Shown: one piece after another, positions 4,583 to 42,895 of the stretch
How positions within the stretch are numbered: the stretch's first letter is position 1
How the letters are laid out: every line of letters begins with the position of its first letter
IMG/VR virus record: IMGVR_UViG_3300042465_005589
Span: 141,741-205,740 of that record
Length of the DNA: 64,000 bases
Strand: one strand, 5' to 3'
Origin: a virus
Notes under the pieces: model-generated
Told to the model about the DNA's origin: nothing
What the model saw: only the letters and a program-made list of their open reading frames with translations
Database searches by the model: none
Position numbers and translations under genes: made by a program

Positions 4583-4900
4583 TTACACACATTCCTTATC
4601 GTAAATACCTTGTAGATAATCGGCAAAATTATCTACCATAAAATAATACAAAGTATCTTTGGTTTTAGAATCAATCTTTCCGCCGTTTTCATAATAGTAA
4701 TCATCAATTAAATCCAATACCAGCATATCACACATTTCACCAATAAAATCACCCAAACTTCCATAATCACAAGGATTATAATTCTGTATAACAAAATCTA
4801 AATGACCTTTAATTTCGTCATAATTAAACCTTCTACGAAGTGATGCCGGGATATTCTCCATTAACAAGTTATGCTGTCTTTCAGTGATTATAATTTTCAT
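4583..4900 (-). CDS. Hypothetical protein of the ITE N-terminal family (MKIIITERQHNLL...).
   Basis: Conserved N-terminal MKIIITE peptide. Its stop and the downstream start overlap as ATGA. Confidence 0.6.
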   Translation of the reverse strand: MKIIITERQHNLLMENIPASLRRRFNYDEIKGHLDFVIQNYNPCDYGSLGDFIGEMCDMLVLDLIDDYYYENGGKIDSKTKDTLYYFMVDNFADYLQGIYDKECV

Positions 4901-5259
4901 TCCTCAACAAATTCCTCAATTAATTTATTCAAACTTATTCCCAACATATCAAGACCAAGTATTTTTAAAAAATTATTTTCGCTAATTTTACGATTGTGAG
5001 ATTCACTTAAAACTAAGGTACCATATTCTTTACCTTGAGGGTGAAGATAATAATTATTTCCATTAACCTTAAACAAATACATTGGACCATAATTATTAAG
5101 TAACCACCTAAACTCATCTCTACCATCAGTAAACAAGTTTTGACCTTTAGGACCTAATTCAATCCAATTTGTAATTATTTCAATATTGTCGGATAAGTTA
5201 TAACCCAATATATTATTGATTAACCCTTTTAATCTGTTTTCTGTTATTATTATTTTCAT
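4897..5259 (-). CDS. Hypothetical protein of the ITE family and paralog of 10259..10633. Start moved to the internal MKIIITENRL.
   Basis: Track ORF 4897..5286. About 45% identity to 10259..10633 (NNILGYNLSDNIEIITNW vs NNTLGYDLSDTIEMITNYW; LGLDMLGISL...EEFVEE vs MGIDMFGIPL...DNFVKEE). Confidence 0.65.
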   Translation of the reverse strand: MKIIITENRLKGLINNILGYNLSDNIEIITNWIELGPKGQNLFTDGRDEFRWLLNNYGPMYLFKVNGNNYYLHPQGKEYGTLVLSESHNRKISENNFLKILGLDMLGISLNKLIEEFVEE

Positions 5260-5600
5260 AATTCTTCCTCCACTCTTTTCCACCACCAGGGGTTATCGTC
5301 TCTCGCCGAAACATTATTTGAATGTAAACCATATTCCTCCAATAACCATTTTTTTAATATTGTTTGAACATCAGAAAAATCTAATCCAAATATTTTGGTT
5401 AACCCACTCCATATATTAAACACATCAACATACACATTAGTGTTTGTTAAATGATAGTCAATCATTACCTTACCGTCTTTAACATAGAAAAGACGAGTTG
5501 GGTTGGATTCGCTTGTAACCGAAGGTAACCCTCCAAATTTATCGGTCAACCATTTTAGGACCAATCTATGTAATCTATCTTCAGTAATTATCATTCTCAT
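5256..5600 (-). CDS. Hypothetical protein of the ITE family (MRMIITEDRLHRLV...).
   Basis: 114-aa ORF with the conserved N-terminal peptide, tightly packed with its neighbours. Confidence 0.6.
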   Translation of the reverse strand: MRMIITEDRLHRLVLKWLTDKFGGLPSVTSESNPTRLFYVKDGKVMIDYHLTNTNVYVDVFNIWSGLTKIFGLDFSDVQTILKKWLLEEYGLHSNNVSARDDNPWWWKRVEEEL

Positions 5601-5601
5601 A

Positions 5602-5919
5602 TTAATTTAATCTTCTAGTAAAAAAAGTTGATTTTAATGCTGACGGTTCATTAAATTTAATTGAAACATATTCTTTACAGATATCCACCAAATCAGGTAT
5701 AGACATCCCTAACATATTTTTAGCGGTATAAAAATCATCGTAGTCAAATCGTATTGATTCTTGTTTGGTATCATATTCAAAAGCGGTACGACCATTATCA
5801 TCCATATATTCATATAGAACGTGAGGATACCCCATACGTATCGGTCGTCTCCCGTGTTTCTCATAACCCCTAAAGGTCATATCAAAATATTTAAAGATGA
5901 GTTCTTTCTTTCTGTTCAT
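5602..5919 (-). CDS. Hypothetical protein.
   Basis: 105-aa ORF spaced 2 nt from the upstream gene. Confidence 0.55.
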   Translation of the reverse strand: MNRKKELIFKYFDMTFRGYEKHGRRPIRMGYPHVLYEYMDDNGRTAFEYDTKQESIRFDYDDFYTAKNMLGMSIPDLVDICKEYVSIKFNEPSALKSTFFTRRLN

Positions 5920-5930
5920 AATTAACTACT

Positions 5931-6335
5931 CTAATTTAATCCGGAACAACGTCCACCTTTACACGGGGACTTAGGACCATTATCTCCAGCCCAAAAAGTT
6001 CTTTCTCCTTTAGGTTCAGGATTTTCAGCAGCGTTCTTTTTTGTTCTATCATCAAATTCTTTATACCATTGGTCAAAAGTTTGTCCGGGTTTTTTATACT
6101 TTTCGTAAGATTTTGTCCAAACAAGTTTATTTCGTTCTTTCTTTAAAGAATCTTTAATAGCAAATGCTTTAGCCCGTTCTTGACGTAGAGCCTCCGCTTT
6201 TTCTTTATTAAGTTCAATTTGTTTTAATCTTTGTTGTTGAGGTGTTAAAACGGTAGTTGTCCCCCCACTAGTTACCGGAGGAGTGGTTTGTTCAATCAAA
6301 AAATTATACTGTGATTCTGTAATTAATATCTTCAT
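5931..6335 (-). CDS. Hypothetical Lys-rich protein of the ITE family (MKILITESQYNFLIEQ...).
   Basis: 134-aa ORF with the conserved N-terminus and a basic, coiled-coil-like middle region. Confidence 0.55.
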   Translation of the reverse strand: MKILITESQYNFLIEQTTPPVTSGGTTTVLTPQQQRLKQIELNKEKAEALRQERAKAFAIKDSLKKERNKLVWTKSYEKYKKPGQTFDQWYKEFDDRTKKNAAENPEPKGERTFWAGDNGPKSPCKGGRCSGLN

Positions 6336-6347
6336 ACAAATAAATAT

Positions 6348-6378: not shown

Positions 6379-7416
6379 TTAATCTACGTTAGTTATTTCG
6401 GTGGGGTGCTCTGTAAATACAGCAGAATTAAAACTGTGGGTATAATTTTTATTATCAAATTCCAACATTTTATTTGGATTAACAAATAATATTTTATCAA
6501 CCAATGATTTTCCCTTATAATCTCTCATACCATAAGTTTTAATGAAAAAAGGACCTTCTTTTTTACCGGCATACGAGACCAATGGTTTAATTTGATAGTT
6601 TATACCATCAATAGTAGCATCAACCCCTTCATATCTATCCATTATAGAACCCGATGGATAAAATGTAGTATTACTACCTTTTTTTAATATTTTAGCCAAT
6701 TCTTCACTTTTATATCCATTCTCAATGGATTGCCATTGACGTTCAACTAAAGGTTCAATAAAAGATGGATTATCTCTAAGTTCATTAGCCAACCAATTAA
6801 CAATATCCAAATCACTGTCCGATTTAGAGTATCTTTTGTTTATCAGTTCCTGAATTTCTTTTTTGGTATCAAAATAATTTAAAATAGACCAATCATCTTC
6901 ATTACCCAATTTTTCACCAATGGTATAGACACCTCTCACACCAGCAGAAAATATGTTATCTTGATAGTTCCATTTACCCGGACCATCATTATCCGGTGGG
7001 AACGCCAATTCCAAAGCCTTACGAATTTGATAAGATGTTATCTCCTGTTTAATATTGGTTTTAGAATCATCAAGTAAATTGAATAATATGTTATAGTATT
7101 TCCTATCCTTATAATATAATTCATCACTAAAAATAAATGGAACTCCTCCCTTATATCTAATATCATTTTTATCCAATTCAAATACCCCGTTAGGACCTCT
7201 AAAGATTACAAATTGAGGTTCGTTTGGTTTTTTATAATCCGATTTTCCAAATTCAGTACCATTAAAAAATGCAATAAATTTTTTAGGGTATTTTTTATCA
7301 GGAACAACACCGATTGATTTATACTCATATTCAGGATTCTCATCCGAATAATCAAACGCACGATTAACCTCACTAACTAATACTTTATATTGTCGTTCTT
7401 TTATTAATATATTCAT
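6379..7416 (-). CDS. Hypothetical protein (345 aa) with an ITE-like N-terminus (MNILIKERQYKVLV).
   Basis: Long ORF. A hairpin terminator (6348-6373) follows its stop and an intergenic repeat copy lies upstream. Confidence 0.65.
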   Translation of the reverse strand: MNILIKERQYKVLVSEVNRAFDYSDENPEYEYKSIGVVPDKKYPKKFIAFFNGTEFGKSDYKKPNEPQFVIFRGPNGVFELDKNDIRYKGGVPFIFSDELYYKDRKYYNILFNLLDDSKTNIKQEITSYQIRKALELAFPPDNDGPGKWNYQDNIFSAGVRGVYTIGEKLGNEDDWSILNYFDTKKEIQELINKRYSKSDSDLDIVNWLANELRDNPSFIEPLVERQWQSIENGYKSEELAKILKKGSNTTFYPSGSIMDRYEGVDATIDGINYQIKPLVSYAGKKEGPFFIKTYGMRDYKGKSLVDKILFVNPNKMLEFDNKNYTHSFNSAVFTEHPTEITNVD

Positions 7417-7437
7417 AATAATAAATATCTATGTTTT

Positions 7438-9965: not shown

Positions 9966-10256
9966 TTAATAAAGTTCCTGGTAATTACGATAATAATCAA
10001 TCCTATTACCAAAATTTTTTCTAATTAAATCAGTTACATAAACTTTCTGTCCTAATGTTAAATCCTGTCTATCCGTTAAGTCGGAAATAACACGACGAAC
10101 AACCTCATCAAAATAATCATCACGATAATAAAATCTGGATACAATTGTAGGTTCACCCATAGAAACCAAATACTTGTCAACAAGTTTTCTGATAAGGTCA
10201 ATTCTTCTCTTAAACCATATGTTATTAAATTGATTCTCTGTAATTATTATTTTCAT
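9966..10256 (-). CDS. Hypothetical protein of the ITE family (MKIIITENQFNNIW...).
   Basis: Conserved N-terminus. An intrinsic terminator follows the stop at 9941-9965. Confidence 0.6.
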   Translation of the reverse strand: MKIIITENQFNNIWFKRRIDLIRKLVDKYLVSMGEPTIVSRFYYRDDYFDEVVRRVISDLTDRQDLTLGQKVYVTDLIRKNFGNRIDYYRNYQELY

Positions 10257-10633: not shown

Positions 10634-10656
10634 AATGATAAATATACATCATTCCA

Positions 10657-13972: not shown

Positions 13973-14054
13973 ATGTTAATAAATATAATGAAATTTGTTT
14001 GTGGATACAAATCTTTTTTGTATCTTTGTACCACAGAATCGGTAATCAGTCCGG

Positions 14055-14096
14055 ATGGGGGCGAACCTTAAGGGTGGAAGAGTAGACTCCACAGCG
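14055..14096. repeat. Degenerate repeat copy D (GGATGGGGGCGAACCTTAAGGGTGGAAGAGTAGACTCCACAG).
   Basis: It shares the GGGGGCG(A/G), AAGGG and CCACAG segments with copy C. Confidence 0.35.
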
Positions 14097-14414
14097 CTCT
14101 ATATTTATATATATCCCCCCATTTACTGAGAATATGATAATGGAGTATATATACTTCTGAAAATAATTGTTAATGAATCCCCCATTTTGTTGAGAATGTC
14201 ATAATTTATTTATATCTTTGTTAATTGACGGTGATTATCGCCGGTAACTATTAAACATTTAAACTATGATGATACTATTTAATATACTAATTGTGATGGG
14301 GGTTCTTATTTTCATTGGTGAAGTTGTGGCTCAGAAACTACCTAAAGACAATTCCTTTGTTATATGGTGGAGGAAACATATCATCGAACATTTATCCGAT
14401 GATGACCCCCGATT

Positions 14415-14744
14415 CTAATTCCCGTTTATAATATAGTCCTCGACACATTGAAGGGAATGTTCCCTTATCTCCATAGTCATCCCTGTTAAGTCATCACTTG
14501 ATAGGGGGGAATCTATATTTATCTTTTCTATAATATCCCCCATCTCACATGCCGTTAGAAGTAAAATCTTTTGACTGATTGGTTTTCTCTGTCCCGGAAG
14601 ACTAACATAATTATACTCACACACTCCTGTGTACTGCTCATAACTATAATTTACAATATACTTTTCCCCCTCACAAACAACCTCAATTGCGAAATTGTTT
14701 AGTAATCTTTGACTCTTATTTAGACTTGTTCTGTTTTGGTACAT
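14415..14744 (-). CDS. Hypothetical protein inside the low-coding region.
   Basis: 109-aa ORF. Confidence 0.45.
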   Translation of the reverse strand: MYQNRTSLNKSQRLLNNFAIEVVCEGEKYIVNYSYEQYTGVCEYNYVSLPGQRKPISQKILLLTACEMGDIIEKINIDSPLSSDDLTGMTMEIREHSLQCVEDYIINGN

Positions 14745-15282
14745 ATTATTAACACTTATTTGTTAATAAATATAAGGGTCTAATGTTTATTCTACATACT
14801 CATGGGGGGAATTGTTGATAACTTAATATGTTAAATTCCTTGATTTTGTCAAAATGTCATGTCTGTTTCACGATGGGGATAATCCTTTTTCCCACTTTTT
14901 CCCCCATTTAACCTACACAGTCTACCACTTTTTACCACCGGATATGGTCATGACGCTATGTCAGTGTCCACTTTTCCCCCTCTGTAGGTAGTGTTAGGAC
15001 CAATAAATTAGGTATAGACGTTTCCCAGTAAATTGTATTAGTTATGGTCTATGATGCGGTGGAACCGTTAGGTGTTAGGAGATTCACTTCAACGACCCGT
15101 TAAGGGTATATAATTGACCACTAATGAACGAATTAAAAATATATAATATGGGACACTATAGAGACATAAAATACCATTAAAACTTACTATTCGTATCACT
15201 CTTGTGAGTTTAAAACTGACTGTAGTGATACAAAACATAACTTTTTAATCGATACCGTAATACAAGTTACCGTAACGTCCAT

Positions 15283-15340
15283 TACAATGTTCATTTAAAT
15301 CTATTGTTCATTGCAAATGAACATACTCTAATAATGAACA
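15283..15340. promoter_or_regulatory. Cluster of TGTTCATT / AATGAACA half-sites, including the palindrome TGTTCATTGCAAATGAACA. Operator-like.
   Basis: Four half-sites within 58 nt at 15288-15295, 15305-15323 and 15333-15340. Confidence 0.4.
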
Positions 15341-15712
15341 CCTCATCCGGATAACTAATCATGTCTGTAGTTTGTGTCGGAGACCGACACATAGTGGAGT
15401 CCCACTCTATATGGGGGGAACTTGTTCCCCCAACATAAATGGGGGGATTGTTTACTTGACTATTAATGGTCAATAGTAAAATGTATATATGGTGAGTAAA
15501 AGGATTATAATATATGATGTGTAAAGTAAAACAGTTATAATATGTAAACTAATAGTATCTGTATAGATTATTGAGTTTTTTATACAGATGGAAGTTAACG
15601 TATATAAATAAATGGATTTCTTATACATAAGAAAATAGTAAAGGATAAAACTATGAGTGAATTCCGGAGTGAAACGCAGGACTATGAACGAATGGTTTAA
15701 TCGTTTAGTATT

Positions 15713-16171
15713 TTACATATTGTATTCTAATGCGTCAACCATAAACAGGAAAATCTCATCTAATGTATTATCATCTAAATCCGTATATCGTTCAGTAAAA
15801 CTACCTTTGTGTCTATCATACTCTTCACCATCATAAACATCTATGGTAACAAAGTCCGGATTGAAATACTCAATTTGTTGTAACTCATAATCAGGAGAAC
15901 CATATGGAATAGCATTCATATTTAATTCATACGTAGATATCCCGGTTGAATTGTATTTTTCTGTTAACTGTTTTATTGCATCTCTAATGAAATTAATTTT
16001 ATCATCAATGGTAAAGTATTTGTGACCAAGAATATTTAATATTGGTTCATATCCACCCATTAACTTAATGGTATGATATAACCCGTACTTGGATATCATA
16101 TTCTTCACCATTTCCTCCCGGTTCTCCGTTAGTAATGATTGGATTCTATGTATGTTCTCGTGTAAATTCAT
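15713..16171 (-). CDS. Hypothetical protein of the MNL N-terminal family (MNLHENIHRIQSLLTEN...), paralog of 16175..16597.
   Basis: Conserved N-terminus plus an internal similar block (LQQIEYFNPDFVTIDVYDGEEYDRHKGSF vs LRQIEYLGKNRAMVDVYDEDMGTHLGDY). Confidence 0.6.
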   Translation of the reverse strand: MNLHENIHRIQSLLTENREEMVKNMISKYGLYHTIKLMGGYEPILNILGHKYFTIDDKINFIRDAIKQLTEKYNSTGISTYELNMNAIPYGSPDYELQQIEYFNPDFVTIDVYDGEEYDRHKGSFTERYTDLDDNTLDEIFLFMVDALEYNM

Positions 16172-16174
16172 ATC

Positions 16175-16597
16175 TTACTTATTGATTAATATCTCAACCA
16201 ATTCATCAAGTATTTGCCCCGGCAAACTTTCATATGGAATATTATAATCACCTAAATGAGTACCCATATCCTCATCATAAACATCTACCATAGCTCGGTT
16301 CTTACCCAAATATTCTATTTGACGTAATTCACCATCCTGTTCACTAAAATGAATTGGTTCTTCATTTATCTCGTGTAAAGCAAAACCACTACCATCATCA
16401 TTTATTTCTATAATTTTCTCTTTAATATAATTTACTTTGTCAATTTCCTTTAAGTATGGCTCAATCACATAGTAATTCCCCGTCATTTTAATGGCGTCAG
16501 CAACACCCATCTTGTCAATCATATTTCTGATGGCTTTATCCCTGTCATTTTCAGAGATTAAGGTATTAATTCTTTGTATGTTTTCTATTAAGTTCAT
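16175..16597 (-). CDS. Hypothetical protein of the MNL family (MNLIENIQRINTLISEN...).
   Basis: Paralog of 15713..16171. Confidence 0.6.
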   Translation of the reverse strand: MNLIENIQRINTLISENDRDKAIRNMIDKMGVADAIKMTGNYYVIEPYLKEIDKVNYIKEKIIEINDDGSGFALHEINEEPIHFSEQDGELRQIEYLGKNRAMVDVYDEDMGTHLGDYNIPYESLPGQILDELVEILINK

Positions 16598-17355
16598 TAT
16601 CCAATATTTGCTCCGGTTATTTGTCTAACCCCATATTCAGGGAAATGTTTCTTAAAGTAGTCCTGAACCGCATACCTGTAATGTCTTGACACATATCCAA
16701 AAGGAACAAATTGAACTAACTCATCATGTAATGAATAGTCCCACCATATTTGTTCGTCCTTTTTATCGTATCTCATTAAAGTTTTTTTAAGGTCTTTATC
16801 ATTAAACAATATAATTACATTATCATTCTCATCATACGCGTTTATTGCCATATCTAAAAACTTAACCATAGTTTTCCCCCACTTTGGATATTCATCTTCA
16901 TACTCTTGGTCAAAAGAAGCTCTTGAAACATAAGCGTCTTTACCCTCGCTCATCATATGTTTAAACACTTGTTTAATATGTTTTGGTAAGGAATTAATCG
17001 GTATTACTTTTGCTCTAATTGTTTCTAATCCTTGTCTTGCGGCTTTCTGTGCTCTGTGGTGCCCATCTATAATCGTTATGAACTCCCCATCATCATTAAC
17101 AAAGATTAATATTGGATATTGTAAGTCAGCGCTTTCTATCTTTCTAACCTCATCTTCATCCCCATCCCACGATAATAAGTGTGACTTTAATTCTTCTACA
17201 GATATTTTCCTCACCGGAATATCTTCTGTGGCGTTTAATAAATCAATAAGGGTGATTTTATCCCCCTCGTCATTTTCCCAAGATGTATCATGCAACCCTT
17301 CATTGATTACCCCCATCATCTGATGGATTCTATGTATGTTCTCTTGTAAGTTCAT
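16597..17355 (-). CDS. ParB-like nuclease domain protein of the MNL family (MNLQENIHRIHQMM...).
   Basis: ParB N-terminal domain signature ...ILIFVNDDGEFITIIDGHHRAQKAARQGLETIRAKVIP... Confidence 0.6.
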   Translation of the reverse strand: MNLQENIHRIHQMMGVINEGLHDTSWENDEGDKITLIDLLNATEDIPVRKISVEELKSHLLSWDGDEDEVRKIESADLQYPILIFVNDDGEFITIIDGHHRAQKAARQGLETIRAKVIPINSLPKHIKQVFKHMMSEGKDAYVSRASFDQEYEDEYPKWGKTMVKFLDMAINAYDENDNVIILFNDKDLKKTLMRYDKKDEQIWWDYSLHDELVQFVPFGYVSRHYRYAVQDYFKKHFPEYGVRQITGANIG

Positions 17356-17356
17356 A

Positions 17357-18130
17357 TTATTTGAAGTCCGGTAATTTAGTATCTTTAATAAACTTCTTGT
17401 GCGAATCTTTATACGATTTTTGAGTCTCGTCAGTCACTTTCTTGGTGTACTGCCAATTCCAATATAAATCATCGTTTGGTTTGAATCCGTAGAATCCATG
17501 TACTTCCTTCTGTGTTTCACTTACTGTCTCCCCGTTCCAATTCTGCCCAACACAAATGAAACCGGTCTCAATATCTTTTACAAGATTTGATTCCCCCAAT
17601 GTTGCGTGTCTATTCTCAATCCAAGTCAGTCTCTCAATTAAGTTCTGATAAAACATATTTGTTTGTCCCCACCTTACCGAACTAAAGAATATAACAGCGT
17701 CAGATTCAAACAACTCTTTGGAAATCTTCCATAACTCATCCTTTGGGTTGTTATAACTTGCCCAACATCTATGGTCTCCCGATGGATTCTTTTTCTTATC
17801 TTTGAGCATCGCTTTCAGTAATCCACAAGAGTTACCATCCTTTCTCGATACATTTCCCTCACAAGAAACAATATTAAGTTCCGAAACATCTATTAGAACT
17901 GACTTATCACCCAACTCATCGTTCAGGTACATCGCAATCATTTTTGACTTTGGAATGTCTATGTTTTTATCATCCCAATTATATCTATTGGAACAACTAA
18001 GTAGTAATACTTTCTTTTTCTTTTTAAGAATATCTAAAGTATTCTTAATTGATTTCCAAGCATCGGACTGAACCATCTCTTCGGAAATCATAATCTCTCT
18101 TATTCTTTGTATATCTTCGTTTAAATTCAT
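17357..18130 (-). CDS. Flavodoxin-like fold protein (NAD(P)H-dependent FMN reductase or quinone reductase-like) of the MNL family (MNLNEDIQRIREIM...).
   Basis: VLLLSCSNR... and SDAVIFFSSVRWGQTNMFYQNLIERL match the flavodoxin-like-fold reductase signature (DAxIFxSPxYWGxMSxxLKxFIDR). Confidence 0.5.
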   Translation of the reverse strand: MNLNEDIQRIREIMISEEMVQSDAWKSIKNTLDILKKKKKVLLLSCSNRYNWDDKNIDIPKSKMIAMYLNDELGDKSVLIDVSELNIVSCEGNVSRKDGNSCGLLKAMLKDKKKNPSGDHRCWASYNNPKDELWKISKELFESDAVIFFSSVRWGQTNMFYQNLIERLTWIENRHATLGESNLVKDIETGFICVGQNWNGETVSETQKEVHGFYGFKPNDDLYWNWQYTKKVTDETQKSYKDSHKKFIKDTKLPDFK

Positions 18131-18243
18131 AATGATAAATATAATGTTTGGTGAAACAGTTTTAATTGTTATATTGACGTATTTTTTTATTTATAAATAT
18201 CTTACTAAGCGGAATAATTAAATATATGTTGTATCTTTGAAGT

Positions 18244-18712: not shown

Positions 18713-18762
18713 GTCCGTTATTACAAACATTATTATTGTTTTTGATTAGAATAACGGACATT
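18708..18762 (-). terminator. Long hairpin (13-bp perfect stem AATGTCCGTTATT / AATAACGGACATT with a 29-nt loop) abutting the stop of gene 18762..19097.
   Basis: Perfect inverted repeat with no clear T run, so it may instead be a regulatory or processing site. Confidence 0.4.
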
Positions 18763-19097
18763 TAATCCTCATTGTGATACCCCATCAAATATACTTCTTC
18801 GGGTTCTAACCTTATTCTATCTTTAAACCACCAAAAAATAACTCTTTGTAGTTCTTCCTCACCAAATGAGAAAACCGATAGAGGTAACCAAAAATCCCTA
18901 TAAACATATAATCCCCCATTATTCTCTAACCATTTCAATATAATTTTACCATCACTATCTTTGAATAACACTCGGTGATTACTAAACACTGAATTTACAT
19001 TCATATCTTTATCTTCACGTGTTAATTTACTCAAGACATTATCTAATACCTTATAGGATAATTGTCTTCTTTTATCTTCTGTAAGAAGTACTCTCAT
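18762..19097 (-). CDS. Hypothetical protein with an ITE-like N-terminus (MRVLLTEDKRRQL).
   Basis: 111-aa ORF. A 13-bp stem hairpin abuts its stop codon. Confidence 0.55.
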   Translation of the reverse strand: MRVLLTEDKRRQLSYKVLDNVLSKLTREDKDMNVNSVFSNHRVLFKDSDGKIILKWLENNGGLYVYRDFWLPLSVFSFGEEELQRVIFWWFKDRIRLEPEEVYLMGYHNED

Positions 19098-19483
19098 ATA
19101 TAATCATTAGTTATTTGAGCAACATTTAATCCTGTGTTTTCTTCAAACCATTCCTTAAATACCGGTAACCATCTATCACCAAATAAAGATGTTAGTTCTT
19201 GACCAACTCTCGGATATATAGATAGTAAAGGACATTTATAATTATGTAAGTGACCATAACCAGCAAAGAATTCATCTTCCGGACCAGCATTTGCGTTACA
19301 CCCATAGTAAATGTAGCTATCAGCATCATCTATAAAGAAAACAATATCACCCCACTTATCAACATCTCTTTGATATGAACCGTGTCTTGTATTTTCATTC
19401 CACCCATAATCCGGATAAAATTCTTTGTCTAAATACTTACGTATAATCTGATTAACTTTATTTTCTGATATAATTACTTTCAT
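19094..19483 (-). CDS. Hypothetical protein of the ITE family (MKVIISENKVNQII...).
   Basis: 129-aa ORF whose start and stop overlap with its neighbours. Confidence 0.6.
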   Translation of the reverse strand: MKVIISENKVNQIIRKYLDKEFYPDYGWNENTRHGSYQRDVDKWGDIVFFIDDADSYIYYGCNANAGPEDEFFAGYGHLHNYKCPLLSIYPRVGQELTSLFGDRWLPVFKEWFEENTGLNVAQITNDYI

Positions 19484-20091
19484 TCTTTTATAATTCTAAA
19501 TCTCAATAATGGTTTACCATTAATTGTGATGTCACCTTTATCATTTTTTTCTATTGTCTTAACAATAACTTTTTTGTTTTTAAATTTACCCCCCATTAGA
19601 GTATCACCAACTTTAATATCTAACTTAATCATTTCACTTAATGTTAATTCTTCTTCATCATGATGATTCCAAGTATCACCACCTGTTCCTTTGTATATTA
19701 ATCTAACGGCATTCGCCGGAATATCCCCAAAGGTAACGATATGTTTAGTATCACCACCCTCAAAATGAGCGTCTTTATACCATTGCACACCAGCTCTTTC
19801 AGTATCAATCACCCATATGTCATCATCATAAGTTGAATCAAACATATCTTTCTTCTTTAAACTATCTGTTGCAAACACAGCAGGAATACATTCTTCATCT
19901 TCACCATAATTACTATCGGCATAAATCAAATAACATTCCCCCAAAGATACCTGAAGACCTGTAGTTGAAATATTATCTCTATTTGATGGATTTGATGAAT
20001 GAACAATAAATCTTCCGGGAGTAATCTCTTCCCCCTTCACTCGTTGTTCTTGTAGTTTTCTATATTGTGTTTCTGTTATAATTACTTTCAT
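19480..20091 (-). CDS. Hypothetical protein of the ITE family (MKVIITETQYRKLQ...).
   Basis: 203-aa ORF. Confidence 0.6.
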   Translation of the reverse strand: MKVIITETQYRKLQEQRVKGEEITPGRFIVHSSNPSNRDNISTTGLQVSLGECYLIYADSNYGEDEECIPAVFATDSLKKKDMFDSTYDDDIWVIDTERAGVQWYKDAHFEGGDTKHIVTFGDIPANAVRLIYKGTGGDTWNHHDEEELTLSEMIKLDIKVGDTLMGGKFKNKKVIVKTIEKNDKGDITINGKPLLRFRIIKE

Positions 20092-20399
20092 TAGTCCCTT
20101 ACCATTTTAACTTCCATACCCCAACTTGCACCATATGTATTAATATAAAGACCAAACATTGAATTAATATCATTTCTTATTTGTCTAGCCATATAACTTG
20201 GACTATGTGTCATCTTACCATCAATGAAGTCAATGTTTAGTATATTTCTAACAATATCATTCTCACCTTTTTCATTTGGTTCACCGGCTAAACGAATTAA
20301 CTTTGTTGTAAAAAACACCCTTTTAACCATAGGATATCCTTTAAGAATATATTTCTCAATTGAACTATTTAACCTATTTTCTGTGATTATTACTTTCAT
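20091..20399 (-). CDS. Hypothetical protein of the ITE family (MKVIITENRLNSSI...).
   Basis: 102-aa ORF. Confidence 0.6.
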   Translation of the reverse strand: MKVIITENRLNSSIEKYILKGYPMVKRVFFTTKLIRLAGEPNEKGENDIVRNILNIDFIDGKMTHSPSYMARQIRNDINSMFGLYINTYGASWGMEVKMVRD

Positions 20400-21323: not shown

Positions 21324-21344
21324 ATTAATAAATATCATATAAAT

Positions 21345-23133: not shown

Positions 23134-23704
23134 TTTTTTTTATTGAAACAGGCTCTTCGTAGTCCCACTCAATTGTTTCTAATTCATTTCTCCACCCAAG
23201 AATATCTTGTTCTGTCCACATCGGAGCAAAGGTTGGTCTTGAATGGAATGGAATGTTATCTCTATCTTTCCATTTTGACAACCTCTCCTCAGCACTTTTT
23301 ATTGAAGATATTAATTTCTCACTATCTTTCCACTTACGGTATTGTTCCTCCGATTTGATGTAGTTAACCTCACCGTAGTTATTAATATCTGCATCCGGAT
23401 TGGTTGTATATACATCCACAATACCATCATAACCATCGTAATCGGCACACAAATCATTCACAGCAAGTTCATTGGTGTATTTATTCACCCAATTTTTACC
23501 ATACGACCTAATCTCACAGATATAAACAAAATCATCATTACGAGTTTGTAAATAATAACCAATCTTATTTTGAAGTTCTCTTAATTCTTCTACCGAGTAT
23601 TTTGTAAAGTCCATTTCCATAGCACAAATGTAGGCATAAAAAAAGGAACTACAAAATAGTTCCTTACTTTTTTTACTTTTTATTGAAGTCAGTATTACTA
23701 ACAT
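23114..23704 (-). CDS. Hypothetical protein.
   Basis: 196-aa ORF. Confidence 0.55.
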   Translation of the reverse strand: MLVILTSIKSKKSKELFCSSFFYAYICAMEMDFTKYSVEELRELQNKIGYYLQTRNDDFVYICEIRSYGKNWVNKYTNELAVNDLCADYDGYDGIVDVYTTNPDADINNYGEVNYIKSEEQYRKWKDSEKLISSIKSAEERLSKWKDRDNIPFHSRPTFAPMWTEQDILGWRNELETIEWDYEEPVSIKKSEDDYE

Positions 23705-24047
23705 ACTTCATGTCCCGGATTTCGTCAGGATATATTACACTCTTAAATCTTTTAGTGAATTTTTTATATATTCTTTTAATAATTTCATCTTTAATTATAT
23801 CATATAATTTATATGAACTAACCCATACACTAACCAAATCATAAAACTTTTCATCATTCACCACAACTCTATTTATGTCAGGGTAATATCTTGAAATAAC
23901 ATCACGTCTATTTCCCGGAGTCAGAAATTCCACATAACGTAAATTAATACTTCTTGTTTGAAACGAATCTCTACTATCCACACCAATACTATTAACTATG
24001 GTATCAATTATTTTTTCTAATTTCTCTTCACTAATTTTAATTTCCAT
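23673..24047 (-). CDS. Hypothetical protein with an ITE-like N-terminus (MEIKISEEKLEKII).
   Basis: 124-aa ORF. Confidence 0.55.
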   Translation of the reverse strand: MEIKISEEKLEKIIDTIVNSIGVDSRDSFQTRSINLRYVEFLTPGNRRDVISRYYPDINRVVVNDEKFYDLVSVWVSSYKLYDIIKDEIIKRIYKKFTKRFKSVIYPDEIRDMKYVSNTDFNKK

Positions 24048-25072: not shown

Positions 25073-25167
25073 TACCAAACTTTTTTAAAGTTTTTTTTAT
25101 TTATTATCTAATTAACTTTAATGTCAGTAGTTATACGTATCATACATTAAAAAAGTTACAAAAACAT

Positions 25168-25353: not shown

Positions 25354-25420
25354 TTAACGCAAAAACACAAACAATACCAATCAATAATGGTAGTGGTGCA
25401 GAAGGGTCTAATGTTTCCAT
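25316..25420 (-). CDS. Possible 34-aa single-pass membrane peptide (METLDPSAPLPLLIGIVCVFALIVIK...).
   Basis: Hand-translated. Its start overlaps the stop of the upstream small ORF as TAATG. Too short to be in the track. Confidence 0.25.
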
Positions 25421-28004: not shown

Positions 28005-28714
28005 TATGTCCAGTAATTATGTTCCTTTGTGAAGAACTCATCGTTATTTCTATTAAACCAAGATTTAATCATCATCTTAACCATATAGAATAAACCTTTG
28101 TTCTTAAATCGTCTTGATGTGGTATAAACAATTTTGTCCGCTACATAAAACTTATTTGGTTTTATCTTTGAACTTAAATGATAATCCTCAGCGAACTTGT
28201 CATCCGGATTAAATCCTCCCAATGAATTAAATTCCTCTAAATTAAATAACATAAATCCTCCAACCGCAAATGGTGTAGAGAATTTGGTTAAGTATTGGAT
28301 AACATCAAATGATTTATACACATAATTGTAATCACCATCGTCAGTTCTCATTTTAGTTGTTGACAAATGATAATCATTTTCTTTCATAACTTCAACCATA
28401 CAATTTAATAGGCAATATTGGTTGATGAATATGTCGGCATCCAAAAATAAAACATAAGGAGTTTTTATCTTTTTGGTTCCGTTGTTTCTGGCTTCGGCAG
28501 GAAATCCCCCTTTAACTATTTTTACATTGATATTGGTATGGTATGAACCAAGAATACATTTCTGTGTGAATCCATCGTCCGTTGAAGAATCGGCAACCAT
28601 TACATTTACACCTTTAATATTATTTTGCAAGTTTAACAATCCTAAAGTTTTCTTTATGATTAATCCCTCATTTTTACAGGGGATTACAATTGTTAAATCC
28701 TTACTTAAACTCAT
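28004..28714 (-). CDS. Glycosyltransferase family 2.
   Basis: TIVIPCKNE (N-terminal GT2 signature) and the DxD motif in LFLDADIF. Confidence 0.7.
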   Translation of the reverse strand: MSLSKDLTIVIPCKNEGLIIKKTLGLLNLQNNIKGVNVMVADSSTDDGFTQKCILGSYHTNINVKIVKGGFPAEARNNGTKKIKTPYVLFLDADIFINQYCLLNCMVEVMKENDYHLSTTKMRTDDGDYNYVYKSFDVIQYLTKFSTPFAVGGFMLFNLEEFNSLGGFNPDDKFAEDYHLSSKIKPNKFYVADKIVYTTSRRFKNKGLFYMVKMMIKSWFNRNNDEFFTKEHNYWT

Positions 28715-30405
28715 ATACTTATATCATCTAATCTATAATTAACATTTTCATTTACAACACTATCATCAGGTGATGGATACCATCTGTCATCGGGGTCAAA
28801 GTCAGGTTTATCAATATGACTTTCAGATAATAATTCATTAAATATTCCTTCTAAATCATACTTACCATCCCTATTCATATGATTTTCAAATATTTCATCA
28901 ACCCAACCTTCATCAATATCAACTAAATTAGCTAAATCGACTTGAATTTTGGCTCCGGTGTCATTAAATTCATATACATTACCATAAAACTCTAACGCCG
29001 ACTCAATTTCTTTCTGTAGAAAATCTACATAATCATTTGCGTCAGCATCATTTATCGCACCACCAATAGCATTTCTTATTTCCCAATCATCATCCACTTG
29101 TTTGATAGAATCTTCTAAATCTAAATCCTCATCTAATTCAACACCATCTCTTTCTGCCATTTTTCTAACAATATCCCACAATCTTTCTTCGGTTGGTTTG
29201 TCTACTGTATATTGGAAATAACTACCAAAATCTTCGTAACCGTCTTGATTCCACAAATCCCAAGCATCACCAGCCATTATTTCAACAAAAATACTTGTTC
29301 TTGTTTGTTTTCCGGTTGTTCTATTAGTATAAGTACGATAGGTACATCCATCAACATAATCATCAAAATCCTCAGGTTTAATTTCTAATGAGAATCCTGT
29401 TGGTAATGGTTCCATTTCAATAATACCCATCTTATCTAACAATCGTTGCATAGGTCTTGACGAGAACAACTCCGGTCTATTTTGATACAATTCTTTGATT
29501 GTTTGTTCCGGTAAGTCAGACAATTTAAAATCCTGTTCTGATGCGTACTCCGTTCCAAATCCTTGAATTAAATAATCATCTTCTTCACCTTCACCACCTA
29601 ACACGTAGAATAACGGTTGAATGTATTGATGGTATTCATCTTTTGGTTTTGAGTTCTTAACACCCTTCAACTGATACATAATACCATCCTCACCAATTGC
29701 CGCAGTTAGAACTGATTTGTTTAATTTATATTTGTTGTTAATCGGAATTACTTGTCTTAATGAATAAAGATATCCATAAGAACTTCTTCCACAATGCCCC
29801 ATTCTATTACATTCTTCTGATGAGTTTTTTGTATTCAAATCAGCCCAATAAAACCCATTTCCATTTTCATCAGTGAAATCTAATATAGTTGGGTTTTCTT
29901 CCTTATAATTAATATCACCCTGACCAATTTCCAAACTATCGTGCCATTGTTTTGATTTACGATGTAATTCATTCAAATTTAACTCTTTATTTTCACCTAA
30001 ATTACCATTCAAACCAACTCTAATCCAATCCATTATTGATGTAATATCTTGTCTATGTGAATTAATAGCTAAATTATTGTTCATATTTTTAATCGTAGCT
30101 CTTTTATATTCTTTATCATCGTCAAATTCCGGAAGGATTGATACTAAACGTTTAGAATAAAAATCAATAAATTTATTACCCATCCAAACAGATAAAGGAC
30201 CACATAGTTTATCCAATAGGTCAGCATTCTCCTCATTAAACCCAATCTTATCCATTAAGATTTGTTTCTTGGATGCCTCCGTAATGATTTGTCTTATACT
30301 CTCAATTAATTTCATACCTATATAAATATAACGAAAACAAAAAACCCCCAATGAGGAGGTTTTTTTATACTGTAAATTTGAAATGATTAGTTTCGTCAAA
30401 ATCAA
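28711..30405 (-). CDS. Hypothetical large acidic protein.
   Basis: 564-aa ORF. Confidence 0.65.
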   Translation of the reverse strand: MILTKLIISNLQYKKTSSLGVFCFRYIYIGMKLIESIRQIITEASKKQILMDKIGFNEENADLLDKLCGPLSVWMGNKFIDFYSKRLVSILPEFDDDKEYKRATIKNMNNNLAINSHRQDITSIMDWIRVGLNGNLGENKELNLNELHRKSKQWHDSLEIGQGDINYKEENPTILDFTDENGNGFYWADLNTKNSSEECNRMGHCGRSSYGYLYSLRQVIPINNKYKLNKSVLTAAIGEDGIMYQLKGVKNSKPKDEYHQYIQPLFYVLGGEGEEDDYLIQGFGTEYASEQDFKLSDLPEQTIKELYQNRPELFSSRPMQRLLDKMGIIEMEPLPTGFSLEIKPEDFDDYVDGCTYRTYTNRTTGKQTRTSIFVEIMAGDAWDLWNQDGYEDFGSYFQYTVDKPTEERLWDIVRKMAERDGVELDEDLDLEDSIKQVDDDWEIRNAIGGAINDADANDYVDFLQKEIESALEFYGNVYEFNDTGAKIQVDLANLVDIDEGWVDEIFENHMNRDGKYDLEGIFNELLSESHIDKPDFDPDDRWYPSPDDSVVNENVNYRLDDISI

Positions 30406-36286: not shown

Positions 36287-36307
36287 TAATAAACTATATT
36301 TATAATT

Positions 36308-40694: not shown

Positions 40695-40753
40695 AATAAA
40701 ATTGTTTTATTGTTTGTTTGTATAGTATAATTATTTTTTATTAAGAAGTCAAA

Positions 40754-41089
40754 TTACCACACCTCATATCCAAAACTTTTATACTCACTACCCCGTAAAT
40801 CTTTTATATTCTCATTTATTGGTTCTAAAATAAATTTTTCAAAATCGTCCGGTTTCATCAATGCCGCCTCAATAAAACCAAAAACAGGTGCCATTTGATT
40901 TATGTAAGAAACAAGGTCATTGTCATTGTAAGATTCAGGTATCAAGTTTGTTAGAACAAGGAAGTACTCCTTTGTAGGATATCCGTAATGTAAATAATAA
41001 AAACGATATTCAGGATGTCTCCTCAAGTGAGGAAACTCCTTATATATCTCTTTTAATAATAATTGTAAAGGTTTTGGATACGGATTCAT
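40754..41089 (-). CDS. Hypothetical protein.
   Basis: 111-aa ORF. Confidence 0.5.
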   Translation of the reverse strand: MNPYPKPLQLLLKEIYKEFPHLRRHPEYRFYYLHYGYPTKEYFLVLTNLIPESYNDNDLVSYINQMAPVFGFIEAALMKPDDFEKFILEPINENIKDLRGSEYKSFGYEVW

Positions 41090-41151
41090 AGTACAAAGAT
41101 AATACTTAATCCCATATAAACAAAAAAAAGGAACTAAATGTTCCTTTTTTT

Positions 41152-42072
41152 TTAATCTAATAATTCTATCTCAGTGTTATCATCCGTTAAGTATTTCGGA
41201 TAAGTTCTTAGTATGTCTTGTTTAATTGTATTTGTAATATTGTTCAATAACTCAGGATTGTCTCTAAAATTGGAATCCGGTATCATTTTCCTGTCAACCA
41301 TTTTACCAGCTTTAAGAACTTTGACAGATATTTTAATTTTACCATCAACATCCTCAATGTCTTTAATCATAAAATTAACTCTGTGAGCATTATCCCCCCA
41401 ACCTCCACTGATTAATTTTGATTGATTAGTTATTTTATCTTTATCTTTTACAAAGTTTGAAACTCTACTAGATTTAACCGTTTCAATGTTACGACTTCCT
41501 CGAATAAGACCTTCCATCTCATCTTTGGTAATACTCATAACATTTGCATTTAAGTTTGAATCAAATTTAACAGGGTTAACCTGACTCATTTGTTTTCTTG
41601 TAGAACTTGAATACGTTTCTAATGTTCTGTACCATTGGTCATTAATAAATAAGAACACTGGATACCACCCATATGATGTAATAACATAATACCAATCATT
41701 ATTATTATTTACATTCCACTGACCTTCAATATTTGAACCCTTAAACGGCATTCTAGCCGACGCATATTCATAAGCCGTATTATTAGTAACTTTTCTCTGT
41801 TTGAATTGTCTGAAATCCTTGAAATTCTCGTTTGTTAAATTTTCATAATCCCCTTCCGGTCTGAAGTTAGCCGTGTATACTTCATAATAAAAATGAGAGT
41901 CGTTTGGTGACATTCCAAGTACCGGTAAAATAGACCTTAAAAATTTTAAAAATTCAGGTTGAGTCTTAGTTTCCCTTTTATGTTTGTCAATATACTTAAA
42001 TAACATAATTTCCTTTTTAGTTAAAGGACCTTCTTGTTCTTCTCGTAGTATACGTCTAATTAGTTCTTTCAT
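41152..42072 (-). CDS. Hypothetical protein of the MKELIRRILRE family.
   Basis: 306-aa ORF with the conserved N-terminus. Confidence 0.6.
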   Translation of the reverse strand: MKELIRRILREEQEGPLTKKEIMLFKYIDKHKRETKTQPEFLKFLRSILPVLGMSPNDSHFYYEVYTANFRPEGDYENLTNENFKDFRQFKQRKVTNNTAYEYASARMPFKGSNIEGQWNVNNNNDWYYVITSYGWYPVFLFINDQWYRTLETYSSSTRKQMSQVNPVKFDSNLNANVMSITKDEMEGLIRGSRNIETVKSSRVSNFVKDKDKITNQSKLISGGWGDNAHRVNFMIKDIEDVDGKIKISVKVLKAGKMVDRKMIPDSNFRDNPELLNNITNTIKQDILRTYPKYLTDDNTEIELLD

Positions 42073-42076
42073 TATA

Positions 42077-42535
42077 TTATTTTAAGAATCTTAATTTATA
42101 TAATGTGGAATATATTAATTCTTGAACTGTATCAATTTGATTTTGAAGAAATGATTCTTTCACACTTTTTCTGTTTTTTTCAACCATTGAATCCAATGAT
42201 TTGAAGTACTTAATAACTTGTTCAGAACTTTTATACTCTTCAGTTTTGATTGAATTGTATCCAGTAATCACATCGTGTTTACCTTGATAACTTTCAATAA
42301 TACCATCTATAAGTGCATCAATCCCTTCATAATACCCTTGTAGAGCCTTATGTTCTGAATATGATTTTGTTTGTAAATGAAAAATGTGTACTTGAGTTTG
42401 TGAATGCAATAAAATAGACACCATATCTTTAAACCCTGAATTGGTTTTTGTATCATCTACCTCAATTTCACCCTCTTCTTTTTGCTCTCTCATTAAGTTT
42501 TTTTTCTTAACTTCTAATAATACATTGTTTCCCAT
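42077..42535 (-). CDS. Dps/ferritin-like protein (candidate).
   Basis: VHIFHLQTKSYSEHKALQGYYEGIDALIDGIIES resembles the Dps helix pattern (LKThNyHWNV.G..F..LH..fEeqY.el...iDeiAERi). Confidence 0.4.
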   Translation of the reverse strand: MGNNVLLEVKKKNLMREQKEEGEIEVDDTKTNSGFKDMVSILLHSQTQVHIFHLQTKSYSEHKALQGYYEGIDALIDGIIESYQGKHDVITGYNSIKTEEYKSSEQVIKYFKSLDSMVEKNRKSVKESFLQNQIDTVQELIYSTLYKLRFLK

Positions 42536-42577
42536 AATAAAGTTTTACATATAAATATATCGTTTAATTGTAATTTA

Positions 42578-42895
42578 TTATTTACCAATTATAATTTCAT
42601 CGTAATTTAATTTACCCATTCCATCATTGTTTTGGGACTCACCCTTAAATTCATCATACATAAATGTTTTTACAACACCAATAATACTTTGTTCTGCTTG
42701 AGATATTTTAGATTCCATCCAATCTTCAAGTTGCTCCCCATTTTCCATTTTTTCCCACATAGCGTTAGCTAATGTTGCAATAGTAAATAATTGTTGTTTA
42801 GCCATGTAAGAACCTTCTTCATGATTCTCGTTAACTGTTCTCATTTTACTAATCAACTTTTCAAGTTGTTTTTCTGTTAATATAACGTTACCCAT
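42578..42895 (-). CDS. Hypothetical protein. Start moved to the internal MGNVILTEKQLEKLI, an ITE-type N-terminus.
   Basis: The track ORF 42578..42928 would run through the terminator hairpin at 42933-42951. Confidence 0.5.
   Translation of the reverse strand: MGNVILTEKQLEKLISKMRTVNENHEEGSYMAKQQLFTIATLANAMWEKMENGEQLEDWMESKISQAEQSIIGVVKTFMYDEFKGESQNNDGMGKLNYDEIIIGK

Follow-up and report, generated by a model that had tools for sequence, protein, structure and literature searches.

Introduction

The prohead protease of bacteriophage T4 cleaves at the consensus L/I-x-E. In T4, the internal proteins IPI, IPII and IPIII, together with Alt, are made with an N-terminal capsid-targeting sequence (CTS) that this protease, gp21, removes, and it is with these leaders that the subject of the present study can best be compared: a short N-terminal peptide with the consensus M-K-I-I-I-T-E-[NS]-Q-[YL]-x-x-L (hereafter the tag), which heads about a sixth of the genes in a 64,000-nucleotide stretch of viral DNA (positions 141,741 to 205,740 of the IMG/VR record IMGVR_UViG_3300042465_005589; this whole stretch is hereafter the window). 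According to reviews, the T4 internal proteins form "a highly diverse set ... with only a conserved CTS" (PMC3012670); for capsid targeting, the initial 10 residues of IPIII are enough, residues 4 and 7 being important for targeting and residues 8 and 10 for processing (PMC9026906, PMC5694885). T4 gp21 and the proteases phiKZ gp175 and SPN3US gp245 all cut C-terminal to Glu (PMC9026906, PMC5694885); the propeptides of phiKZ-like phages are mostly longer than 100 residues and have no common tag, and the cleavage motif is S/A/G-x-E in phiKZ and A-x-E in SPN3US (PMC5694885). In these giant phages, the paralogues gp53 and gp54 share an identical 15-residue N-terminus, which the authors of that study likened to a CTS (PMC5694885). 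In P1, a myophage that injects anti-defence proteins, an N-terminal stretch of DarB, longer than 9 residues but no longer than 30, is enough to send a reporter into the capsid (PMC9024508). The DarB signal differs from the tag in that it is found on one protein, in a phage with a different head protease lineage, and with no shared motif described. Outside phages, the cargo-loading peptides of encapsulins are short conserved terminal peptides that dock unrelated enzymes inside an HK97-fold shell, so that cargo is predictable from the peptide; these peptides differ in being usually C-terminal and uncleaved, and in serving a bacterial nanocompartment rather than a virion, without scaffold or protease.

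When the tag is set beside the T4 leaders (7–20 residues; MKTYQEFIAE, MKTFKEF...ITE), the common features are the N-terminal position, the M-K start, the small and otherwise unrelated proteins that follow, and an end in [I/L]-x-E, I-T-E being present also at residues 17–19 of IPI. The clade to which the window belongs moreover encodes a gp21-family protease, a scaffold, Gp23 and Portal_T4, and its putative cargo genes are diverse and fast-evolving, as are those of the T4 internal proteins. Unlike T4, where only a handful of genes are concerned, 17–19 genes in 64 kb, and about 13% of the called genes in tag-bearing loci, carry the leader; the cargo includes peptidoglycan hydrolases, a sigma factor, leucine-rich repeat (LRR) proteins and a DHH enzyme; tags may stand in tandem; the residue after the presumed cut (P1') is N, S or D instead of Ala; the cargo is acidic; and the system is known from sequence alone. 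The phiKZ-like giant phages are similar in having a gp21-related, Glu-cutting protease, and many of their inner-head proteins are processed and ejected, although the leader described here differs from their propeptides in its length of 7–16 amino acids (aa), in being common to at least 58 clusters of proteins and in having Ile at P3.

By analogy with the CTS that T4's internal proteins carry, the tag is probably a lineage-specific N-terminal capsid-targeting or cargo-loading leader, cut after Glu7 and sometimes after Glu15, and present on more than 10% of the genes. The general principle is already known from T4; what stands out here is the scale of such a CTS-like leader, its lineage-specific interchangeability and the spectrum of its cargo. 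A literature search on the peptide strings of the tag found no paper, and in the text of the Far-T4 paper (PMC4360716) the terms "promoter", "motif" and "internal protein" are absent, while "N-terminal" occurs once in an unrelated sense.

A Shared N-Terminal Tag

Read as the strict pattern M-[KR]-[IVLM]-[IVL]-[IVL]-[TS]-E at an ATG, the tag heads 10 open reading frames (ORFs) of the window (starting at 4900, 5259, 5600, 6335, 10256, 19097, 19483, 20091, 20399 and 38905), whereas the amino-acid composition of the window predicts 0.0014–0.006 such N-termini by chance among approximately 100 genes. A scoring profile built solely from members outside the window, with 315 internal segments as decoys, places eight window N-termini at 17–32 bits (10256, 6335, 4900, 5259, 20091, 38905, 20399 and 19483) and 19 above the best decoy (3.6 bits), the additional, degenerate ones being 5600, 10633, 19097, 7416, 24047, 21323, 42895, 39329 (+ strand), 30315, 16171 and 48197. 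The shared N-terminal tag is real and far above chance. The original prediction, made by reading the window alone, had counted at least 20 genes with this peptide: the shared motif stands, but the number was too high, with eight canonical members and 17–19 when variants are included. Position 18762, given there as the start of a variant gene, is actually the stop end of the ORF starting at 19097. Tagged genes continue beyond the interval 4583–42895 to which they had been assigned, as is seen on the left flank of the window in another contig with its leftmost gene (L131).

The tag is strictly N-terminal and in register right after M-K. The motif h-h-h-[TS]-E (h, hydrophobic) occurs 340 times in 1,827 genes (350,727 residues), and 265 of these occurrences fall in the histogram bin for residues 3–5. 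A profile made from the window only was also compared, without an index, with 1.84 billion representative proteins; 40 proteins reached E ≤ 0.001, 35 of which match from residue 1 and one from residue 13, the remaining four being long proteins that align to the non-tag portion of the profile only. Within the tag, residue 7 of proteins beginning M-K-h-h-h-[TS] is Glu in 196 of 208 and Lys in nine; residue 6, with the other positions conditioned on, is Thr in 181 of 204, and residues 3–5 are Ile in 178–182 of about 200. Among 196 tagged proteins, 59 have a further [ILVMF]-x-E that ends at residue 15; among 1,381 untagged ones, 33 do. Past position 10, hydrophobic residues continue with helical periodicity. 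The tag consists of only 3–4 aliphatic residues followed by T-E-N-Q and an amphipathic helix, and lacks the 10–20-residue hydrophobic core and signal-peptidase site of Sec, Tat or lipoprotein signal peptides. In an AlphaFold2 model of the protein encoded at 4897–5259 (33 sequences; predicted local distance difference test 90, predicted template modelling score 0.83), residues 1–6 form a flexible, low-confidence, unstructured stub and a helix begins at Glu7. A fold search with this model retrieved no solved structure (best E 0.27) and matched one uncharacterised viral protein; tblastn of the same protein against phages gave chance matches only.

Selection on the tag acts at the amino-acid level. 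This could be seen from synonymous sites in 207 non-identical members, taken from the window and from IMG/VR loci fetched by a pattern permitting every synonymous codon: since codon entropy at the tag positions equals that of bulk genes (Ile, 1.30–1.47 against 1.37 bits; Thr, 1.72 against 1.71; Gln, 0.68 against 0.64; the Asn position is also equal), it is the peptide, not the DNA or RNA, that is selected. The sole deviation from bulk genes is a shift to A-ending synonyms (ATA over ATT, AAA over AAG, GAA over GAG). A constraint on DNA or RNA, one of the alternatives offered by the original prediction, is refuted by this test, which had been proposed along with it; the conserved DNA block claimed at the same time, ATGAAARTAATHATYACAGAAAAT, matches only five window sites even when up to three mismatches are allowed, with third positions varying freely. 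Some database proteins, furthermore, carry the tag in two or three tandem copies before one body (e.g., MKVVINESQYNKLFN-KTKT-KLVIDESQYNRLFN-KTKT-KLVITESQFNSLMSE), an arrangement that fits a docking motif and not a translation-initiation feature. Among the proteins P0212, P0215, P0188 and P0205, some repeat K-h-V-I-x-E-S-Q-Y-N-x-L with KTKT linkers, while in others two tagged units, each starting MKYIITES, are fused.

Modularity and Tag Swapping

In IMG/VR, the exact coding pattern of MKIIITENQ was found in at least 119 stretches. The window and related IMG/VR loci together contain 267 complete tagged ORFs, encoding 222 distinct proteins of 63–826 aa. When compared by BLAST without their first 18 residues and grouped by single linkage, these proteins form 58 clusters, the largest with 55 members. 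Pfam domains on long tagged representatives comprise Phage_lysozyme with LysM, Hydrolase_2 with PG_binding_1 (SleB-like), VanY/Peptidase_M15, sigma-70 regions 2 and 4 (an extracytoplasmic function sigma factor), leucine-rich repeats and Phage_L5_gp82; other tagged proteins contain HExxH motifs or are homologous to the DHH protein of the window. The tag is thus a module on unrelated folds and not a trait of one expanded paralogue family, and a reading by paralogy only was rejected on the basis of clustering and domain content. That the sharing goes beyond ordinary paralogy, as originally proposed, is borne out also by the small number of window pairs that align over their full length. For most pairs it is likewise correct that the proteins share little else, nothing being detectable past the leader; this does not hold for the genes starting at 5259 and 10633 (40% identity across the full length), or for those starting at 5600, 19097 and 21323, which are true paralogues. 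Ten tagged window proteins have no significant Pfam or PHROGs match.

Comparison with the huge phage genome LR745206 (635 kb) reveals that the leader can be exchanged. No MKIIITE genes occur in LR745206; 107 of its 907 called genes start with other leaders (MK[YH][LI]Kx[FY][NE]ES, MKxLKxYKIFES or MIKK[YFW]NQF[IL]NE), and these (MIKKYNQFINE, MKYLKxFE) do resemble T4 leaders, unlike MKIIITENQ. The DHH-family protein encoded at 46436–47842 of the window is 40–45% identical to proteins of LR745206 and of a second huge phage, LR756502 (635–642 kb). Among its orthologues, the full tag MKIIITENQLKSLISE (ending ..LISE) stands before SGIRDIN, the window has MKKLIKE before SGLRDIN, and LR745206 has the leader MISKYNQFINEE (..FINEE) before VGLRNIS. 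In a second family, named after its KVGD motif, the tag-bearing lineage has ..QLTE before MIKLDIKVGD and LR745206 has MKHLNRFDE before MIKIPIKVGD. In both families the body is kept while the leader is exchanged at the same point, and the leader ends in [I/L/F]-x-E right before the body. The KVGD..GGKFKNKK domain itself is C-terminal in the window protein encoded at 19480–20091 and directly follows the tag in other lineages. Some orthologues, for instance a Nudix hydrolase, a P-loop kinase and a sigma factor, bear a tag in only one of the two lineages.

Head Genes and Putative Cleavage Sites

Head proteins from the T4 record were searched against the tag-bearing loci, which were found to encode gp21-like prohead proteases of 227–242 aa (E ~1e-18 to T4 gp21) whose alignment retains the His of an ELNHP motif and the Ser of a GxSSRG motif, a Gp23-type capsid protein (E ~1e-27 to 1e-29), T4-type portals and an acidic scaffold (392–510 aa), in the gene order portal, protease, acidic scaffold, capsid protein. 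Public data include approximately 8,000 relatives of the protease; among those listed, all belong to PF03420 (Peptidase_S77), and some lie on contigs of 206–334 kb. Two loci, on contigs of 153 kb and 323,865 bp, have Terminase_6N, Portal_T4, Peptidase_S77 and Gp23. Cultured relatives of the protease are distant, the best being T4-like cyanophages at ~40% identity. A tagged gene between portal and protease was considered as synteny with T4 genes 67/68 and rejected as general evidence, most head modules of the clade being without it.

The protease scan of genome contigs did not recover the window phage's own contigs. The 257-aa protein encoded at 17357–18130 of the window shares 81% identity over its full length with the product of a gene on the 323,865-bp contig that lies 1.6 kb away from the capsid gene, and DUF5872 proteins on the left flank of the window are 76–89% identical to ones beside the capsid gene in three such contigs. 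Because of these identities to capsid-adjacent genes, we assume, with high confidence that stops short of certainty, that the window phage relies on this gp21-type protease.

With regard to the substrates, ipII and ipIII of the T4 record begin MKTYQEFIAE followed by A, and ipI begins MKTFKEFTSTTTPVSTITE followed by ATLTSE. In IPI, I-T-E occupies residues 17–19 of the leader (..STITE, then A), and cleavage of IPI after I-T-E19 yields the 76-residue IPI*. The I5-T6-E7 of the tag is a canonical candidate site for this kind of cleavage, with the same sequence as the IPI site. Comparable sequences occur in head proteins of the clade: the capsid protein has L-I-N-E-A-A in the N-terminal region that aligns to the T4 gp23 propeptide (FLTE-AEIGG), and the scaffolds contain sites such as I-V-T-E, [IL]-F-T-E and S-I-N-E.

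At 198546–200669 of LR745206 (L274/L275), a gp21-like protease domain (residues 20–153; E 4.5e-12 by hmmsearch against that one protein) is fused to a scaffold-like region in a protein of 707 aa. The scaffold region contains at least 10 tandem repeats of NIxYSEY[LI]AEN[LV]DK, each with [LI]-A-E, and the repeat resembles both the phage's own leader variant MIKKYNQFINE and the ..YQEFIAE of the T4 CTS. The same phage encodes a portal of the T4 type (193127), a terminase (178254) and, at 200752, a capsid protein that matches weakly.

Promoter-Like Elements and Timing

Upstream of many genes, the window has a phage element, (A)TATTTAT, which is located 4–6 or 13–17 nucleotides (nt) before the ATG. 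Several copies immediately follow a terminator formed by a G+C hairpin and a T-run, and 33 element-to-ORF pairs were found. The core of the element is the reverse complement of the T4 late promoter TATAAATA. TATTTAT precedes the terminase, portal and protease genes in relatives, and in the window a Laminin_G_3 gene, which is why it is read as a late promoter of structural genes. It occurs within 40 nt upstream of 115 of the 235 genes with the tag and of 441 of the 1,592 without it (odds ratio 2.5, p = 2e-10), at 4–5 nt before the ATG in 88 of the 115, while the host-type element TAnnTTTG is depleted before tagged genes (14 of 235 against 188 of 1,592). As we read the promoter map, every tagged gene of the window appears to lie in a same-strand run headed by TATTTAT. 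On the evidence of this motif, the tagged genes appear to be expressed late, together with the head genes, and the short spacing between element and ATG suggests leaderless or near-leaderless late mRNAs.

Some neighbouring observations concern the same elements. TAnnTTTG, mostly as TATCTTTG, is located upstream of 702, 9116, 11302, 13153, 18244 (+), 41089, 43792 and 44616, none of which is tagged; the window genes led by it are probably early genes transcribed by the host RNA polymerase. Many leader genes of LR745206 are preceded by a different promoter-like element, TTAATATATA, also 4–6 nt before the ATG. Between portal and prohead protease, on the opposite strand, head modules of relatives encode a homologue of ribosomal protein bS21 (PF01165, 61–63 aa; L265 9244–9429, L270 9240–9431), which could bear on the translation of the apparently leaderless late mRNAs.

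Proposed Function and Alternative Explanations

A capsid-targeting leader would operate as follows. Tagged proteins would be made late, from the promoter class of the head genes; their hydrophobic stub (K-I-I-I-T) and the start of the next helix would dock on the scaffolding core of the assembling prohead, thereby enclosing the cargo; the gp21-family prohead protease would then cut after Glu7, I-T-E being an I-x-E site, and in about 30% of members also after Glu15 (L-x-E), freeing the mature proteins inside the head, from which they would presumably be ejected with the DNA. According to the best-supported model, the leader evolves in company with the scaffold and protease system, one tag being replaced by another. 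Virion packaging with processing at I-x-E had been the lead hypothesis of the original prediction, and it emerges from testing as the best-supported reading, albeit a partly supported one: the gp21-family protease, Portal_T4 and Gp23 of tag-bearing phages, the modular tag, the promoter element of head genes and the I-T-E of T4 IPI all speak for it, while the protease of the window phage is taken from relatives, packaging, cleavage and injection are deduced, and the count and some coordinates were off. An amphipathic helix used for docking, offered there as an alternative, agrees with the hydrophobic stub and subsequent helix of the predicted structure, but it is hardly a rival, since the tag would probably work by docking in any case.

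Several points weigh against a protease-removable targeting leader. Encapsidation, cleavage and ejection are all deduced from sequence, and the gp21-type gene is attributed to the window phage through close relatives only; all protease matches in the phage collection are below 60% identity, with no cultured relative, and in most head modules of the clade no gene within 10 kb is tagged. No sequence similarity links the tag to the T4 CTS, the two having in common only the M-K and the logic of a terminal I-x-E, and residue 8 is N, S or D where the T4 internal proteins have Ala. Lys stands in place of Glu7 in the nine proteins mentioned above and, within one family, in four of 33 aligned sequences, and the helix that starts at Glu7 belongs to the predicted fold, so that a cut would fall at the N-terminus of a helix. 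The tagged proteins are acidic (median isoelectric point 5.1). Finally, the load would be heavy: strict-motif genes make up ~13% of the called genes in tag-bearing loci, a figure to be read in the light of these loci having been selected for carrying the tag, and the other leaders of LR745206 are comparably frequent, with a cargo that would take in enzymes such as Nudix hydrolases and P-loop kinases. Such a scale (17–19 genes per 64 kb; 12% of LR745206 genes) is, however, not implausible, because giant phage heads hold many proteins, with ~50 different ones in SPN3US heads and 89 proteins in 201phi2-1 virions (PMC5694885, PMC9026906).

The alternative that survives best, although we regard it as unlikely, is that the tag sorts proteins to, or docks them on, a target other than the prohead, be it the phage's DnaJ, Hsp20 or ClpP-like proteins (for folding or timed degradation), the envelope or periplasm, or the tail and baseplate. 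The modular, N-terminal and sometimes tandem tag is what a binding motif would look like, and DnaJ is encoded at 59251–60168, a ClpP-like protein just left of the window and Hsp20 nearby; a basic residue followed by an aliphatic core, moreover, resembles the client sites of Hsp70/DnaJ. LR745206, however, shares DnaJ and the ClpP-like protein (60% identity) and yet has a different leader, which tracks its divergent scaffold and protease instead, and chaperone binding leaves both the near-invariant Glu7 and the [I/L/F]-x-E junction unexplained, whereas a Glu-specific protease explains the two. Delivery to the envelope could be argued from the lysozyme with LysM, the SleB-like hydrolase and VanY, which carry the strict tag and all need access to the cell wall, as does a PG_binding_1 protein whose tag-like MKNIITEELG lies just outside the strict pattern; as an export signal, the 3–4 hydrophobic residues of the tag, followed by acidic and polar ones, differ from the true signal peptides of the window, such as that at 25920–26318.

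Less probable still is a structural or oligomerising function of the shared N-terminus, as a short strand and amphipathic helix that a fast-diverging multigene family has kept by descent, or that have been selected repeatedly for aiding folding, with no role in sorting. The true paralogues in the window, the 55 members of the largest cluster, and a reading of I5-T6-E7-x-Q9-[YL]10 as a helix N-cap with a hydrophobic staple, whose helix 7–18 packs into the predicted fold, would be expected of such an element; they have to be set against bodies of established unrelated folds (GH24-type lysozyme, VanY, sigma-70, LRR, DHH), orthologues that retain the body while swapping or losing the leader, the near absence of the motif from internal helix starts, and tandem tags ahead of a single body. 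Least probable of all is a role in gene expression, whether through an A-rich, unstructured first 25–30 nt or a nascent peptide favourable for initiation on possibly leaderless mRNAs, or through a recombination cassette of promoter plus tag: expression signals do overlap the tag, as shown by the A-ending codon bias and the 4–5-nt promoter spacing, and every consensus residue has A-rich codons, but synonymous diversity equals that of bulk genes with all Ile and Thr codons in use, the order of residues and not their composition alone is fixed, 120 of the 235 tagged genes keep the tag with no element within 40 nt in front of them, inside operons, many late genes of equal promoter spacing have no tag, internal tandem copies cannot serve initiation, and the exact DNA consensus is confined to the few window sites noted above.

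Two ideas go beyond the targeting leader as proposed here. One, which we put forward tentatively and think rather doubtful, is that Bacteroidota jumbo and mega phages with T4-type heads use interchangeable, lineage-specific N-terminal "address codes" (MKIIITENQ; MKYLKxFE/MIKKYNQFINE), which would mimic their own scaffold repeats and load 10–15% of the proteome as an injected arsenal of sigma factors, cell-wall hydrolases, metalloproteases, LRR proteins and nucleotide-processing enzymes. Were this true, any metagenomic genome would directly reveal the injected payload, and code, scaffold and protease would co-evolve. The other idea, more radical still, is that the destination of the tag is a compartment or machinery so far undescribed.

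Should the tag be a cargo leader, sequence alone would suffice to predict which proteins are inside the virion and injected in a large phage group that is uncultured and widespread in the environment. Dozens of small "hypothetical" genes per genome could then be approached functionally, as candidates for effectors of host takeover or anti-defence. The principle of the T4 internal proteins would then scale to more than 10% of a genome and evolve by tag swapping, and short portable peptides would be at hand for packaging foreign proteins in phage heads. The resemblance between leader and scaffold repeat in LR745206, for its part, suggests a testable mechanism for how capsid-targeting sequences work.

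The Window and Its Phage

The window has a G+C content of 31%, with genes mainly on the - strand, where all tag-bearing genes listed in the original prediction are located. Its proteins recur exactly in several metagenome assemblies, including a 314,678-bp contig of the Joint Genome Institute (JGI 3300042889, Ga0453676_0000002) in which the window corresponds to ~111–175 kb; the phage is uncultured and about 315 kb in size. Megablast of 20 kb of the window against 50,697 deposited phage records gave no match and no close relative. The TAnnTTTG elements and the Bacteroidota-style signal peptides of the window point to a Bacteroidota host; a 248-kb contig with related head genes is binned in a metagenome-assembled genome of the Flavobacteriaceae. 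Genuine signal peptides, unlike the tag, are for example those encoded at 277–702 and 25920–26318 (MKKLLITFVLLLTTLLTFGQ). The features of the window are collected in Table 1.

Table 1. Tagged genes, other leader-bearing genes and promoter-like elements in the window.
Coordinates	Strand	Length (aa)	N-terminus or leader	Feature	Score or basis
2193..2651	-	152	MKKIIKLTESDL	Loose variant; TATTTAT 4 nt before ATG	Profile score at background
2724..4310	+			Laminin_G_3 protein, PHROG family "virion structural protein"; TATTTAT-driven	
4583..4900	-	105	MKIIITERQHNLLME	Tagged gene, canonical; second L-x-E ends at residue 15	26.8 bits
4897..5259	-	120	MKIIITENRL	Tagged gene	Profile, ≥17 bits; AlphaFold2 model
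5256..5600	-	114	MRMIITEDRL	Tagged gene, near-canonical	7.6 bits
5931..6335	-	134	MKILITESQYNFLIE	Tagged gene; TATTTAT 4 nt before ATG	Profile and promoter map
6379..7416	-	345	MNILIKERQY	Degenerate tag; TATTTAT 4 nt before ATG, terminator-like hairpin upstream	Profile and promoter map
9966..10256	-	96	MKIIITENQF	Tagged gene; top score of the window	31.8 bits
10259..10633	-	124	MRIIIAESKL	Degenerate tag; paralogue of 4897–5259; TATTTAT 4 nt before ATG, after terminator-like hairpin	
15713..18130	-		MNLxENIxRIxx[LM][LIM][TS]E	Four tandem genes with longer common leader behind one TATTTAT	
18762..19097	-	111	MRVLLTEDKR	Near-canonical tag	Strict pattern and profile
19094..19483	-	129	MKVIISENKV	Tagged gene	17.4 bits
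19480..20091	-	203	MKVIITETQYRKLQE	Tagged gene; C-terminal residues 151–203 form the KVGD..GGKFKNKK domain	Profile
20091..20399	-	102	MKVIITENRL	Tagged gene	20.7 bits
20994..21323	-	109	MKILIIESRR	Degenerate tag; heads TATTTAT-led same-strand gene run 21323 to 18762	
23673..24047	-	124	MEIKISEEKL	Degenerate tag; TATTTAT 4 nt before ATG	Profile and promoter map
28711..30315	-	534	MKLIESIRQIITEASKK	Offset motif (IITE at residues 10–13); TATTTAT 6 nt before ATG	8.1 bits
38375..38905	-	176	MKLIITESKY	Tagged gene; TATTTAT 28 nt upstream	23.3 bits
39329..40030	+	233	MTPQITEEQLKSLKL	Offset tag; TATTTAT 13 nt upstream	13.7 bits
42578..42895	-	105	MGNVILTEKQLEKL	Offset tag; TATTTAT 13 nt upstream	12.9 bits
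46436..47842	-	468	MKKLIKE, then SGLRDIN	DHH-family protein, shortened leader	Orthologue comparison
6340-6347, 7421-7428, 10638-10645, 18135-18142, 21328-21335, 24052-24059	-			TATTTAT examples	
2710-2716, 24359-24372, 36296-36303	+			TATTTAT examples	

PHROGs gave a single match on the large window proteins, namely the Laminin_G_3 structural protein. No tRNA genes and no Rfam families were found in the window; this includes the regions ~14000–15700 and 24900–25400, which have few ORFs and a flattened strand skew.

Other leaders are present in the window as well. Those of the MNLxENIxRI type (15713–18130) end in L-T-E, I-S-E or I-N-E at residues 16–19, and a leader reading MKELIRRILRE or MKNLIRKILREE heads the three genes 24377–24862 (+), 41152–42072 (-) and 20399–20992 (-). 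Both types have [L/I]-x-E, follow the late element or sit in TATTTAT-headed runs, and may represent further leader classes.

Among the remaining genes, that at 59251–60168 (-) encodes a full-length DnaJ with J domain, CXXCXGXG motif and C-terminal domain, and together with 53601–54201 (-), 58110–58958 (-) and 48241–49104 (-) it belongs to a set comprising DnaJ, thioredoxin, glutaredoxin and two DNA methyltransferase-like genes. The ClpP-like protein to the left of the window (PF00574, 244 aa; L131 17863–18597) has its counterpart at ~75.1–75.9 kb of LR745206, and it is between these two phages that the 60% identity given above was found. One of the methyltransferase-like genes encodes a D12-class N6-adenine methyltransferase that is 59% identical to its LR745206 counterpart.

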